Virus record (IMG/VR): IMGVR_UViG_3300028800_000002
Location: 122,444 to 186,443 of that record
DNA: 64,000 nucleotides
Origin: a virus
Direction: 5' to 3' (one strand)
In this document: positions 3,331 to 53,831 of the stretch, piece after piece
Layout: each line of letters begins with the position of its first letter
Position numbering within the stretch: position 1 is the first letter of the stretch
The notes under the pieces: model-generated
What the model was told of the DNA's origin: nothing
What the model saw: the letters and a program-made list of their open reading frames with translations, nothing else
The model's database searches: none
Translations under genes and position numbers: made by a program

Positions 3331-4095
3331 ATGGCTGGCAACTTCAGTGACTGGTCTCCCTACACGAACTACGTGCAGGCTGGTTTGGTCGATGGCGCGT
3401 ACGCCAACGCAGGGTTCACCATGCTCGCTGCAGGTCCGCCTCGCATCTCGAACATCGGCGGGGCTGCCGCGTTTGCACAAGCTGTCAGCGGGACTGGGCA
3501 ATCTGCCAACCAGATTGTACTTCCCGTCGGCATCGTGCAGAACTTCCAGCTCTCGCACACTCGGCAATTCAATCGCATCTTTGAGATTGGTTCCGAGCGC
3601 AGCTACTTCATCACGGGCCGCACCGTGGGACAGCTGGGCCTTGGTCGCATCTACTATCATGGTGCATCACTGCTGCGTACCCTGTACGCGTACTACCAGG
3701 ACTTGCTCCCTCCGACGGTAGTGCCAGCGATGTTTCTCAACTCTGGCTCAGCCAGCATGTCCAACCCGCACAATGTGGTAATTCCACCCGGGTACGAGAA
3801 CATCTACATCAACTTGGCTTCGGACTTGTTCACGCAGCCCGTTGGCATGCTGATGTATGTGCGGGACATCAATCAGGATGCTCTGGGCGCCGTGTACTTC
3901 GAGGCGTGCTACCTACCAAACCACACTTGGGCGACGGACGCTCAGGGCGTGCTCATTCAAGAGTCAGTGGCCATGCAGTTCGAACGGGCAGTGCCCGTGG
4001 CGATCTCAGCGTTGACACTCATCTCGAGCGCGACCAATCCCAATGCGGGTGGCTCTAATACCAATGCGACCTTCCTAGGCATCCCCGGGTCCTAA
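3331..4095 (+). CDS. Probable tail tube protein
   Basis: Near sheath; strong SD (AAGGAG); VGIVQNFQLSHTRQFNRIFEIGSERSYFITGRTVGQLGLGRI and GAVYFEACY...ESVAMQFER fit a tube-type fold. Confidence 0.65.
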   Translation: MAGNFSDWSPYTNYVQAGLVDGAYANAGFTMLAAGPPRISNIGGAAAFAQAVSGTGQSANQIVLPVGIVQNFQLSHTRQFNRIFEIGSERSYFITGRTVGQLGLGRIYYHGASLLRTLYAYYQDLLPPTVVPAMFLNSGSASMSNPHNVVIPPGYENIYINLASDLFTQPVGMLMYVRDINQDALGAVYFEACYLPNHTWATDAQGVLIQESVAMQFERAVPVAISALTLISSATNPNAGGSNTNATFLGIPGS

Positions 4096-4472
4096 TGAGC
4101 GCGAGCACTGCTCCTTTTGTGCTGCAAGGCACGCTCACTGTGACGCTCCCTGGGCAGCCGCCGACGCCGCTGCCTTTCGGGCTTTCCGGGGCATTTTCCT
4201 CATTGATGAGCGAGCGGCTCATAATGTCGGGTGCTGGGACTGAAGACGTCTCTCTTGGAACTATCGTAGGAGCTAAGCTCTTGCTGCTCGAGTACGTTGC
4301 CGCTGAGGGAGCTGCCGCCATTACCCTGCACATCAATGGCAGCACCGATGGCCTTGAACTTTCCCCAGGTGGGGTTTTACTTTATGGAAGCCCCAACCCA
4401 ACTATTGGCCTCACTGCATTGAGTATTGAGCGCACGGTAGCTGCCGAGGTTCTCGTCCACGTCTTAGGCTGA
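4095..4472 (+). CDS. Hypothetical virion-associated protein
   Basis: 125 aa, beta-rich, coupled to tube gene (TAATG). Confidence 0.55.
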   Translation: MSASTAPFVLQGTLTVTLPGQPPTPLPFGLSGAFSSLMSERLIMSGAGTEDVSLGTIVGAKLLLLEYVAAEGAAAITLHINGSTDGLELSPGGVLLYGSPNPTIGLTALSIERTVAAEVLVHVLG

Positions 4473-27363: not shown

Positions 27364-27396
27364 TGCTGTGCTCCTCTACTGTTCTTATCCCCGAGA

Positions 27397-31645: not shown

Positions 31646-31801
31646 CTAGTACAACACTGAGCTAAGTTTGGGGCACGACCCCGTCGGGCCGTGCTGTGCG
31701 CCATTTAGCTTCATGCAGCCCGTCAGCTTACTTATGTGCTCCCATGTGAATCTTATCCCAGGACAACTGGGAAAATTTCAAGTTTAGAGTAAGATGATCC
31801 G

Positions 31802-49037: not shown

Positions 49038-49432
49038 TGTTGCCTGAGTTCGAATCGCCAGAGCAATTGCTCAATGATACTGTGTTGGTGGGCACAAGCT
49101 CGTCTGTCTTTCCTGCCGGTGACGACTTGTTTGTGCCCATTCATGTGGTGCCCCGCATTGAAACGAATACGGGGGTTACGCCGACTCCGGCGGGGCATAT
49201 AACCATCCAGTACATGTCCCAAGTGGGCATGCGTTCGGTGCATGTTCCTTGGACGCCTTCGCTCACTGTGGCGAGGGCGTTTTCTTTGGCGCGAAACCTG
49301 GACCCCATCTTCAAGCACGTGAATGTGTTTGGCTATGCCCGGGTCGTTAGGCGCCGGAGGGTAAAGCTGAACTTCACGCTCTTTATGGGTGATGTGATCG
49401 AACTCAATGACCGTCTGAAGCCCTTTAGGTGA
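49034..49432 (+). CDS. Hypothetical protein
   Basis: 132 aa, coupled to neighbours. Confidence 0.55.
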   Translation: MMLPEFESPEQLLNDTVLVGTSSSVFPAGDDLFVPIHVVPRIETNTGVTPTPAGHITIQYMSQVGMRSVHVPWTPSLTVARAFSLARNLDPIFKHVNVFGYARVVRRRRVKLNFTLFMGDVIELNDRLKPFR

Positions 49433-50322
49433 CCATGACCTTATCCAGTATTGACATCAATGTGCAGGACGATGCGGCGCTAAACCCACCAGTGGCGGGC
49501 GTAGTTGTTCGCGTCTTTGATTCAACAGGAACTAACTTCATTACGCAAGGCATTACAGGAGACGATGGGCACGTGGGGTTTGCGCTAGATGCGCCAGACA
49601 CGTACCAAGTTCGCTTCTTCATGGAGAGTTTCTCGATAAAGCAACCTCAAATCCTCGCCGCGCTAGACATGTTGGTCAATAAGTTCACAGCAATAGGTCA
49701 TGTCTACAAACCACCAGAGGCCGTGCACCCACGGTTGTGCTGCTGTTCGGGATTCTTCAAGAACCCAGACAATTCAGCAGCAGTCATGCACTTGATCCAC
49801 GTCATCCCAAAGTTCGACCCCATCCTGTTCGAAGGCTCTGCGATGCTGACGGAGCTGCTCAAGCAGAAAACGGATGAGAGGGGGTATGCCCAGTTCAATC
49901 TTGTCCGCATGGGGCAGTACCAAGTAACTGTCGAAGGATTCGAGGATGAGGTACGCATCATCACGATCCCCGATGCCCCAAGTGTCAATTTGCCAGACTT
50001 GTTGTTCCCGGTGGTGGATCTCATCACGTTCGATCCCCCAGGCCCGTACAGCATTGGAGAAGGGACTCAAAATGAAGTGGCAATTATTCCGACGGTTCAC
50101 ACGTCTGATGAGCGGGTTCTTCCAGGAATTGCTTCAGGCGATGTCCAGTGGTCGTCTAGTAATCCCGCCGTGCTCGCAGTTCTCGCTATCGGAACCAACT
50201 TGGTACTGCGCGGGATGTCGCCCGGGTTGGCCCGGATACAGGCAGTGCGTGTGGACACCTCCATCATCCGAATCCCCAACACACCCATCCAAGGCGTCCC
50301 CGTAGACGTGATGGTGGGCTAA
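49429..50322 (+). CDS. Ig-like/carboxypeptidase-regulatory-like virion protein
   Basis: PVAGVVVRVFD...GITGDDGHVGF; C-terminal VQWSSSNPAVLAV (Big_2-like). Confidence 0.65.
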   Translation: MTMTLSSIDINVQDDAALNPPVAGVVVRVFDSTGTNFITQGITGDDGHVGFALDAPDTYQVRFFMESFSIKQPQILAALDMLVNKFTAIGHVYKPPEAVHPRLCCCSGFFKNPDNSAAVMHLIHVIPKFDPILFEGSAMLTELLKQKTDERGYAQFNLVRMGQYQVTVEGFEDEVRIITIPDAPSVNLPDLLFPVVDLITFDPPGPYSIGEGTQNEVAIIPTVHTSDERVLPGIASGDVQWSSSNPAVLAVLAIGTNLVLRGMSPGLARIQAVRVDTSIIRIPNTPIQGVPVDVMVG

Positions 50323-51113
50323 TGGACAACCGCGATTACCAGCTACGGCAAGTCTTGAGCGACGTCACCCAAGGGGCGGAGGTCATGCGCTACATGGCCT
50401 TGGCCATGGAGGTGATCCCAAACATCTGGGTGTCGGCCAACTTCTTGACCGCCCTAACAACCCCGCTTCGAGCTTTGGACGGGCTGCTGGGGGATTCTCC
50501 GCTTCCTGTGCGGCATCGGGCTGCGCGCAGGCTTCCCCTCCGCTTGGTAGTCAAGACGCGCGGTCGGCGCCCCATGAAGCGGACACTTGCCGAACGTGAG
50601 CTCCCCAACGCCCTACCCAAGCCCCCGGATATCTCCAGCCTTGGTTTTCTGTCCAGCGTTACCATTGAGGCGAAGATCAGGTCCATTTCGGAAGCCTCTG
50701 CGTGCCGGGCGCTGTTGCTTGAGATTGTGCGCCGCGCAGCTTTCGACTGGGTGCTGTACCGCTCGAGCTCGAAGCTCATCAACCGGCAGCTGGCTGAAGG
50801 AGCTCACAGCTGGCTCTTCATCGAGGAGCCTGACTCTTCACTGGGCCTCATTCGCCACAAGAGCGGCAAGTCCTTGACTAGTTTCGTGGCGATCTGCGAG
50901 CTGCTCGACCTTGACCCCGACAGCGTCCGTGAGCGCATCAAGCTGTTGACCCGGCAAGAGATCATGAATGCAGGCCGCCCCGCGGAGCGCCGCAAGCACA
51001 AGACCATCTCTGAGGATGCTCTGCACACGGATGATCTGCGAGTATTCGATGTCGATGTGGACTGCCTGCCAATCCATGATCCGTTGTATAGCTCATACGC
51101 AACGGATAGCTAA
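50322..51113 (+). CDS. Hypothetical phage protein
   Basis: LLEIVRRAAFDW...WLF...SFVAICELLDLDPDSVRERI helical motif. Confidence 0.6.
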   Translation: MDNRDYQLRQVLSDVTQGAEVMRYMALAMEVIPNIWVSANFLTALTTPLRALDGLLGDSPLPVRHRAARRLPLRLVVKTRGRRPMKRTLAERELPNALPKPPDISSLGFLSSVTIEAKIRSISEASACRALLLEIVRRAAFDWVLYRSSSKLINRQLAEGAHSWLFIEEPDSSLGLIRHKSGKSLTSFVAICELLDLDPDSVRERIKLLTRQEIMNAGRPAERRKHKTISEDALHTDDLRVFDVDVDCLPIHDPLYSSYATDS

Positions 51114-51142
51114 AAATAAGGGCACCGTTGTAGTGCCCTTAT
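51112..51142 (-). terminator. Intrinsic terminator closing the - strand array transcript (possibly bidirectional)
   Basis: 10-bp stem ATAAGGGCAC/GTGCCCTTAT, 7-nt loop; followed by a T-run on the - strand. Confidence 0.8.
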
Positions 51143-51512
51143 CCCAATGAAATCCAAACTAGTTCTATGCCCCGCCTCGGTTCAATGATTTCGACTGTGT
51201 TCCCTGAAGGACTTTGGATCAATGCTTGAATGCGTCTTCGGTATCACAGTTTGGTTCAATGTACGAACTTTACATTCGATACCCACGCTTGGCTCAATCT
51301 CCTTGTAACTCTTCGCTTCCTAGAAATGATTCAATAGCCATTCTTGTTTTCGCTGTTCACTATAGATTCAATAACTTGTATCGATATTCCATGGCCCGGC
51401 TCGGTTCAATGTTGGGCAAAGTCTTCGGTCTGTCTCGACGGTTCAATGAGCAGCGTGACGTTACGTGTGCGGCGTAAGTTCAATGTTGGACGTAAGCTTC
51501 GCTGTCGGGCTT
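51140..51512 (-). repeat. Dual-repeat interspaced array (TIGR-like architecture), 37-38 nt period
   Basis: Repeat 1 starts at 51140, 51178, 51215, 51252, 51290, 51327, 51364, 51402, 51439, 51476; repeat 2 (ANNGAANN) always 9 nt after repeat 1 on the - strand. Confidence 0.88.
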
Positions 51513-51966
51513 TGCAGCCGTTGCACTTGTGCTTTCGCTTAGGAACTTTTCCTAGTATTTCGAATACAACCCTGTGCGCTTGCGATAGAGTAATTGGGTT
51601 GTTGTTATGCTTGCGCGAGTCAAGACGTACAGCTGTCATGATTGCCGCAGTATTGGTCACATCAACTTTTCCGCTCACCCAAATGAGAGCTTCGTGACTC
51701 ATGTACTTCCCGTAGGACTTTCCTAAGCGGGCTAAGGCCACATGGATGTTCCTCCAGTAACGAAAGTATTTACGGGTTACACAATAGAGCCAATCGCTAC
51801 AGGTTTTTCCACCTGCCTCCTCAGTTCTGGTTGCATCCCATCTTGTGTTTAGCTCAATCACAAGCTCAGCCGCTTGCTGCAGATCGGTATTTGTGCGTAG
51901 TTTTGCAGCTAGCTTCTTGCCTATTACGTCTAAAGGATCTCGTGGATCAAAGGTATCATCGCTCAT
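51406..51966 (-). CDS. Uncharacterised array-associated protein
   Basis: SD AAGGAG; 186 aa, basic, helical, CNGC; 3' end is encoded by the first array units. Confidence 0.7.
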   Translation of the reverse strand: MSDDTFDPRDPLDVIGKKLAAKLRTNTDLQQAAELVIELNTRWDATRTEEAGGKTCSDWLYCVTRKYFRYWRNIHVALARLGKSYGKYMSHEALIWVSGKVDVTNTAAIMTAVRLDSRKHNNNPITLSQAHRVVFEILGKVPKRKHKCNGCKARQRSLRPTLNLRRTRNVTLLIEPSRQTEDFAQH

Positions 51967-51987
51967 TACTGGGCTCCTTCTGAAATA

Positions 51988-51995
51988 CTTATCCC
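51988..51995 (-). promoter_or_regulatory. GGGATAAG promoter-like motif upstream of array-associated gene
   Basis: Same motif at same distance from SD at 27384-27391 and 27626-27634. Confidence 0.45.
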
Positions 51996-52988: not shown

Positions 52989-53831
52989 ATGGCCTTCAAA
53001 GGTAGGGGCCATCTAGAGCGCGCCATTCTTTGCCCTGAGTGCGGAGTGCCCATGGCGGAAAGGATGAGTGCCAAGTACGGGGGCTTTTACGGGTGCACCA
53101 GGTTCCCCCTCTGTGTTGGCACCCGCCCAGGTAAGGCAGGCCTCAATTCCTACACCAAGCTGCTGCACGAGGCTTACGCCAAGGCCTTGGTCTTTCTCAG
53201 CAGCCCCAGGCTTCTTGGAGCACAGGTAGCCTCGCTTTGGCTGATGTGTCGAGCGCTAGATTTGGACGATGATGAAACAGTAGCTGAACTACCAGCGCCG
53301 ACAGATCTGACTGATGCGGCATTGGAGAAGGCTATTGATGCAGCGGTGGCCTACGTGGTTGAGCACGGCTTTGACCAAGACTTCTTGGTGTTGGCGCACA
53401 GCGAGCGCTTGCTGCACATCAAGAGCAAGTTCAAGGCCAACATTACCCCGGACAGGATCCGCGCACTACCCAAGCCGGCAATTGTTCGCAGGTATGACGA
53501 AGGCACTTTGCTGCAACTTGAGGCAGCTATCACCGCAGACTGGAACAGTGAGGGCATGTACTGCCCGCGCTGTGGTAGTTGGGCAGAAAAGTGCCGAGTT
53601 GCTACGAATATCGATGGACTGCACTTCGACCTCGAAGCCGATGACGATATGCTCCCGTTTATTGGCTTCAACTGCACTGAGTGTGGAGAATTCAAGAAGC
53701 GCGGCAAAGTATATGTCTTCACAAATGACGTGGGTGAGCCTGGTGTAGTTCCGGGTATTGCCTTGGATGCCCCAGAAAGAATGCGCGAGGAAGATAGGCC
53801 AAGGATTGTATTCGATGTCGACAAAGACTGA
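52989..53831 (+). CDS. Protein with topoisomerase-type C4 zinc ribbon
   Basis: CPECGVPMAERMSAKYGGFYGCTRFPLC; second CPRC...CTEC. Confidence 0.7.
   Translation: MAFKGRGHLERAILCPECGVPMAERMSAKYGGFYGCTRFPLCVGTRPGKAGLNSYTKLLHEAYAKALVFLSSPRLLGAQVASLWLMCRALDLDDDETVAELPAPTDLTDAALEKAIDAAVAYVVEHGFDQDFLVLAHSERLLHIKSKFKANITPDRIRALPKPAIVRRYDEGTLLQLEAAITADWNSEGMYCPRCGSWAEKCRVATNIDGLHFDLEADDDMLPFIGFNCTECGEFKKRGKVYVFTNDVGEPGVVPGIALDAPERMREEDRPRIVFDVDKD

Follow-up and report, generated by a model that had tools for sequence, protein, structure and literature searches.

TIGR-Tas systems were described in 2025, and their natural role in phages is still open. By definition, TIGR arrays have repeats of 8–12 nt and spacers of about 9 (up to 12) nt, arranged in units of about 36 nt, and they finish with a truncated last edge repeat followed by a rho-independent terminator (PMC12045711). 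[quoted passage not shown] Maturation of the dual-repeat tigRNAs needs the Tas protein (PMC12045711), and processing goes through a Tyr/His dyad of Tas (preprint 10.64898/2026.09.09.750476). According to the published TIGR-Tas work, proteins of the TasA type bind DNA without cutting it, and repression of transcription is possible.

Here we analyse a stretch of 64,000 nucleotides (the window) at the end of a virus record of 186,443 bp, of which it makes up the last 64 kb. The record carries direct terminal repeats and is classed as complete. An earlier note, made from the letters alone, had recognised in the window an array of two alternating repeats and read it as a guide-RNA array, either a divergent TIGR relative or a new family. 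Compared with the dual-repeat TIGR/TasA loci (Faure et al., Science 2025, PMC12045711; TIGRFinder 10.64898/2026.09.09.750476), this array has the same alternating edge and loop repeats of 8–10 nt, and likewise units of about 36 nt with two short spacers each; it too finishes with a truncated last edge repeat and an intrinsic terminator. It is likewise phage-borne, with a word common to both repeats and spacers that differ between relatives, and in those relatives a Nop-domain Tas gene stands immediately upstream of the array. In contrast to the described loci, the genome to which the window belongs is without any tas gene. We conclude that the feature is very probably the 3′ end of a dual-repeat TIGR array from a TIGR-TasA locus, that its effector has been deleted, and that it is likely an inactive relic.

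Anatomy of the array and of its relatives

The array is read on the minus strand, where a cut unit, nine complete units, a degenerate copy of repeat 1, a hairpin and a U-run follow one another from 51512 to 51112. The nine complete units (51150..51485) measure 37 or 38 nt each and equal units 39–47 of the 47-unit array of a sibling contig (L006, see below). The unit ahead of them (51486..51512) is cut at its 5′ end, its edge repeat having gone with the deletion described in the next section, and the terminal degenerate edge repeat, truncated at its 3′ end (CATTGGGATA), occupies 51140..51149. The ten copies of repeat 1 reported by the earlier note, with plus-strand starts running from 51476 to 51140, all proved exact. 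Its second repeat does lie at the offset that was claimed, 9 nt after repeat 1, but the conserved loop repeat, as defined by 100 units of related arrays, begins one base earlier. Conservation in these units is concentrated in two cores, YATTGAA(cc) at positions 1–9 and CAnyGAA at positions 19–25; A2, G5 and A20 are invariant, and the remaining positions outside the cores are near-random. Edge and loop repeats have one word in common, CA..GAA (C-A-n-y-G-A-A), 18 or 19 nt apart, in which the A is invariant and the G-A-A near-invariant.

A compound pattern (ATTGR with the loop core 13 nt on) gives nine tandem matches in the array, spaced by 37 or 38 nt, whereas elsewhere in the whole 186-kb genome, on both strands, it gives six scattered matches against 4.6 expected in shuffles; this is therefore one array, far beyond chance. 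The array escaped Tandem Repeats Finder owing to the variability of more than half of each unit. The array is closed by an intrinsic terminator (51112..51140, minus strand) with an 8-bp GC-rich core stem, extendable to 14 pairs, and a loop of 7 nt for the core stem or 5 nt in the extended fold, followed by the U-run. The hairpin folds at −18.7 kcal/mol (z −5.0 versus shuffles), adjoins the stop codon of a convergent plus-strand gene (50322–51113) and is present on one strand only. A scan with consensus promoter and terminator models missed this terminator and gave no sigma-70 promoter; Rfam, applied to 5 kb around the array with E up to 10, returned two chance-level matches, both outside it; and blastn of the array region against GenBank phages gave no match. 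Pfam and PHROGs yielded no useful names for the neighbouring genes. Two neighbours have recognisable domains: the product of 52989–53831 (plus strand, 280 aa) has a C4 zinc ribbon of the topoisomerase type (PF01396, E 2.7e-8), and that of 49429–50322 (plus strand, 297 aa) a carboxypeptidase-regulatory-like domain (PF13620, E 5e-8). Both are kept beside the locus in relatives and have no evident link to the array.

In its anatomy the array resembles the dual-repeat TIGR arrays throughout: short repeats alternate, two short spacers separate them, the units are in tandem, a degenerate last edge repeat is followed by a hairpin and a U-run, and edge and loop repeats carry a matching word, as TIGR boxes do, with letters unlike the boxes of TasR guides. 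The adjacent Tas (Nop-domain) gene that belongs to such arrays is present neither in the window nor in the complete genome, but it does adjoin the array in the 99.7%-identical sibling and in two further relatives, L007 and L008. These are phage contigs about 70% identical in DNA, with Tas proteins 75–82% identical and arrays of 23 and 34 units, respectively. The order common to the relatives is accessory gene, tasA, hairpin, array, terminator and a convergent gene of 261–267 aa, and a fourth relative shows the same gene order. A truncated last repeat and a terminator likewise end the arrays of L006, L007 and L008. The hairpin between the tasA stop codon and the first edge repeat (L006:3494-3546, L007:7111-7148, L008:9111-9149) folds at −22 to −30 kcal/mol, differs in sequence from one relative to another and is not followed by a U-run; it is gone from the window, and could be a leader, processing or attenuation element.

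The comparison of orthologous loci that the earlier note had proposed bears on the kind of element at hand. L006, L007 and L008 conserve the repeats and have no spacer in common, and since the repeats are kept while the spacers all differ, guides are favoured over protein-binding sites. This bears out the claim that the array is of TIGR type and encodes guides instead of a protein repeat, and it disfavours the alternative that had been offered, namely iterons, par or packaging sites. We give almost no credence to the broader form of that alternative, in which the repeats would be phased double-stranded DNA sites bound by the helical protein encoded upstream, or would belong to a guide family unrelated to Tas. 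The period is indeed regular, and the upstream protein weakly resembles DNA-binding domains of the ParB, KorB, Spo0J and SopB kind in VIA-align (Z 6.5–6.8, too low for helical folds). However, the array adjoins a Tas homologue in every relative, the segments between the repeats are fully replaced even between relatives whose Tas proteins are so similar, only one strand carries a terminator, the array being strand-specific, and its anatomy agrees with TIGR point by point. We infer from homology that the array would serve as a source of guides.

Other arrangements were also seen. In L009, a distant member of the two-gene system, dual-repeat arrays stand on both sides of tasA (L009:4483-4920 and L009:5858-6130) and use different repeat words, AACGAGAG alternating with AACGAAGTG. 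In L021 and L022, the accessory gene and tasA flank the array. Viral contigs scanned for three spaced edge-repeat cores yielded nine matches, all of them plain tandem repeats and none a TIGR array; no Tas or accessory gene accompanied any of the nine.

A deletion of 2,729 bp relative to a sibling phage

The array is an orphan because a mapped deletion removed tasA. The 186-aa ORF upstream of it (P0001) has four close homologues in public metagenomes, and a sibling contig from a public metagenome (L001; L006, of 46.9 kb, is its extended form) shows 99.7% identity to window positions 53706–51506 (7 mismatches in 2,201 nt) and 99.8% to the next 7,350 nt of the window (12 mismatches, no indels). 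At the upstream join of the array L006 carries 2,729 extra bp, the flanks being otherwise collinear without indels. The window sequence is that of L006 minus the stretch between two direct repeats of the 10-bp word GCAAAGCCCG, which occurs twice in L006 (L006:2192 and L006:4931) and as a single copy at the junction in the window (51506..51515). The missing DNA comprises the last 25 codons of the upstream gene, a gene of 392 aa (P0006), the hairpin and 37.5 array units, that is, units 1–37 and the edge repeat of unit 38, or four fifths of an array that counts 47 units in all in L006 and ends there with the same truncated repeat and terminator. The earlier note had remarked that the first copy of repeat 2 has no intact repeat 1 upstream; so it is, and the deletion junction explains it. 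Between window and sibling 8/9 of the A spacers and 8/9 of the B spacers are identical, the exceptions being single-base changes. A guided event at the junction was also considered, of which there is no sign: the junction word is not special, six 10-mers being common to the upstream genes and the array where about 3 are expected.

What doubt is left concerns mainly the nature of the deletion, which could be biological or could reflect a choice made in assembly. In the second case the phage would possess a full tasA and a 47-unit array, and the record would be either misassembled or a minor variant that the assembler picked. Searches for exact copies of the junction, of the intact left junction and of the array end brought up no further contig in the viral and metagenome collections, in which near-identical records are possibly masked, so that an independent contig with the junction is not at hand. 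Furthermore, two of the three contigs with the intact allele (L002 and L003) break inside tasA or just after its start, as could happen in a mixed population: L002 ends 174 nt past the left breakpoint, and L003 ends inside tasA. These breaks may reflect population heterogeneity, in array length or in deletion alleles, that disrupts assemblies at the locus. Against an artefact, the join is exact at a 10-bp direct repeat, which is too short to collapse an assembly graph at the usual k-mer sizes; such joins are typical of real microhomology deletions, the flanks are collinear, and the record is closed by its terminal repeats and rated complete. We consider an artefact unlikely.

As one option, the earlier note had named a Nop-domain effector lying elsewhere, which the searches did not bear out. 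The complete 186-kb genome gave no match to P0006; tblastn with six Tas family members found no match in it (best E 1.8), nor did the Tas family profile on all six frames (best E 4.4), and the Pfam profiles PF02371 and PF01798, the Nop/IS110 search that had been suggested, matched nothing in it, while positive controls worked for both. With the searches for Tas, IS110-C and Nop all negative, an effector elsewhere is unsupported. A second array of the same repeat type is likewise absent from the 186-kb genome. Targets of the A+B spacer pairs, a further check proposed at the outset, were sought in the phage's own genome as 18-bp sites in both strand arrangements: none was found at ≤2 mismatches, and matches with 3 mismatches were fewer than in permuted-pair controls. 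Complementarity between spacer A and spacer B within a unit was no higher than in permuted pairs.

The lost Tas homologue and its upstream partner

The 392-aa product of the missing gene, which lies at L006:2315-3493, is a Tas homologue. As a single sequence it matches 9mty_A, a solved TIGR-TasR complex (E 3e-4), and the profile of its family (33 members) matches PDB entries for TasR (9mty_A, E 7e-25) and TasH (21kl_A and seven other entries, E 6e-15). Its AlphaFold model (pLDDT 80, pTM 0.77) finds in Foldseek, as its ten best matches, TasH-tigRNA-DNA and TasR complexes (E 2e-9 to 3e-6), with the IS621 bridge-RNA recombinase coming next. The protein thus has what defines the Tas family, a coiled coil and a Nop / IS110-C RNA-binding domain homologous to those of TasR and TasH; in the model residues 1–55 are basic and of low confidence, and residues 57–133 form a helical hairpin. 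The TasA subtype is marked by having neither an HNH nor a RuvC domain ahead of the coiled coil; since Pfam recognised no nuclease domain in the protein, we call it TasA-like, a likely assignment. In PHROGs its sole match is a family annotated 'transposase' (E 6e-8), and tblastn against GenBank phages gave no match. With a tasA directly upstream of the array in the near-identical sibling, the suggestion of a new family falls away: the array is one of the dual-repeat TIGR-TasA kind already described. The earlier TIGR reading was thus right in kind and, taken as a whole, is partly supported.

The gene upstream of tasA is a constant companion of this clade. In the window it survives as the truncated copy P0001 (51406..51966, minus strand), which is native to about 51506; the array supplies the last ~32 codons, with the TGA of an edge repeat serving as stop codon. 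In the sibling the intact protein has 179 aa, so that the deletion swapped its last 25 residues, downstream of a conserved CxxC, for residues encoded by the array. AlphaFold predicts the intact protein to be all-helical (pLDDT 93.5). Its family comprises proteins of ~160–210 aa with the conserved CxxC (92 representatives), and the gene stands directly upstream of this TasA clade in 13/13 loci that have upstream DNA. It lies upstream on the same strand in all seven loci fetched via either protein (L006:1741-2280, L007:5444-5998, L008:7430-7969, L009:4001-4483, L011:83-640, L021:1885-2448 and L022:1737-2372), and in 6/6 IMG/VR loci with a close Tas of the clade and upstream DNA (L023-L026, L028 and L030). 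In contrast, three loci with much more distant Tas proteins are without it. In L030, an accessory-like ORF (3741-4076) overlaps a Tas-like ORF (3851-4453) within L030:3741-4453, which could be a fusion, a frameshift or a broken locus.

What this protein does is less clear. Comparison with the PDB by sequence and by Foldseek gave no significant match, the Atlas gave sub-threshold leads only, and prediction of a complex between the Tas and accessory families returned 'no answer' with a score of 0.00, which speaks neither for nor against binding. We considered the possibility that the 186-aa ORF is itself the Nop effector and rejected it: the model is all-helical, there is no match to Nop, in the PDB or in Foldseek, and Pfam was uninformative. 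Nor does it match TasParB, the partner known from other loci, as the DGFHR-type motif (DG.HR) occurs in 0/50 members, the fold is all-helical and no Pfam ParB profile matches; it seems to be a distinct partner. A helical partner with CxxC is absent from the TIGR-Tas descriptions in PMC12045711 and 10.64898/2026.09.09.750476. It is quite possible, if somewhat short of probable, that the all-helical CxxC family is an obligate partner of one TasA clade, distinct from TasParB, and it could act, for example, as a DNA-binding or recruiting subunit or as a factor for the upkeep of the array.

Fate of the remnant and comparison with known systems

These findings suggest the following course of events. 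The ancestral locus would have had two genes, ordered as accessory gene, tasA, leader hairpin, 47-unit array and terminator. A deletion between two chance copies of the 10-bp word would then have taken away tasA, the leader hairpin, the 3′ end of the accessory gene and units 1–37 with part of the next, leaving 9.5 units and the terminator fused to a truncated accessory ORF; the loss would be very recent. In the intact sibling, a transcript of the array would be cleaved within the edge repeats to give tigRNAs of ~37 nt, and the two short spacers in each of these would direct a TasA dimer to the two strands of the DNA target. As TasA has no nuclease, the expected outcome would be binding or repression instead of cutting.

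Transcription of the remnant in the window would at most occur by read-through, with the remnant forming the 3′ tail of the truncated accessory mRNA. Ahead of the 186-aa ORF, on the minus strand, stand a promoter-like word, GGGATAAGT (51995–51987), and a putative ribosome-binding site, GAAGGAG (51980–51974). The word is a candidate promoter, and no other source from which the remnant could be transcribed is visible. In the general form GGGATAAG(A/T) it has 3 copies in the window against 0.67 expected, a weak enrichment, as 5/100 shuffles reach 3. The copies lie at 51987–51995, 27383–27391 and 31751–31759, all on the minus strand, and one of them is 21 nt upstream of the accessory start codon. 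Because there is no Tas gene and dual-repeat tigRNAs require Tas for their maturation, the guides of the remnant are likely unprocessed and inactive.

It might be argued that the remnant is still in use, with guides matured and loaded by TasA from a co-infecting intact sibling or from another element, in which case the deletion variant would profit from the sibling's system or titrate it. Intact siblings at 99.7% identity do exist in public metagenomes, nine units retain intact repeat cores together with the terminator, and a read-through ORF and a promoter-like word lie upstream. We regard such use as very unlikely, however: the leader hairpin, present in all three relatives, has been lost, and there is no sign of co-infection. 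Moreover, the 19 substitutions between window and L006 are 6.6-fold denser in the remnant (4 in 376 nt, window 51140–51515 versus L006:4931-5306) than in the flanks (15 in 9,175 nt; Fisher p 0.006), a density that would agree with relaxed constraint and that the non-coding status of this DNA could by itself explain. An inactive relic is thus the reading that we retain.

The locus offers a base-exact case of how a TIGR locus is lost, by a microhomology deletion that leaves an orphan array, and it recommends that orphan arrays emerging from repeat scans be compared with sibling genomes before a distant or new effector is proposed. It also provides two jumbo-size phages from the environment that are near-isogenic and differ in the presence of tasA, and the array of the intact one is unusually long, with 47 units. 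The conserved second gene beside this TasA clade, unlike TasParB, could be an accessory factor, and if the partner reading is true, window and sibling would form a natural pair for testing the function of TIGR-TasA in phages.

No new kind of system is present here; the array belongs to the known TIGR family. It departs from the described dual-repeat loci in some features: units measure 37 or 38 nt instead of the usual 36 nt, and spacer B has 10 or 11 nt; the repeats carry CA..GAA instead of the UG/CCA boxes of TasR and ParTasR guides; and the intact array of the sibling far exceeds the usual 5–15 units. The tasParB-tasA operons (Faure et al. 2025, Methods, fig. S14) likewise join a small upstream partner to tasA and dual-repeat arrays, which may lie upstream of the genes, between them or downstream, and the prediction that TasParB relies on its C-terminal region can be counted as a further likeness. 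However, TasParB has a ParB/Srx-like fold, the DGFHR-type motif and a C-terminal dimerisation region, whereas the partner here lacks the ParB/Srx strands and has the conserved CxxC. With the bridge RNA of IS110/IS621 and the box C/D snoRNA guides, the system has in common a two-part guide logic and, in the effector of the relatives, the same Nop / IS110 C-terminal RNA-binding fold. In contrast to these, no DEDD/RuvC recombinase domain, serine loop or single bridge RNA was seen, neither a K-turn nor an L7Ae partner was identified, a sequence match to L7Ae with E 0.39 not being significant, and the guides are arrayed. A parallel in fate is that of the orphan CRISPR arrays left after cas loss, where a guide array likewise outlasts its effector, keeps its repeats and terminator and is presumably inert; the system, the repeat architecture and the effector family are different, and comparison with a near-identical sibling places the present deletion to the exact base.
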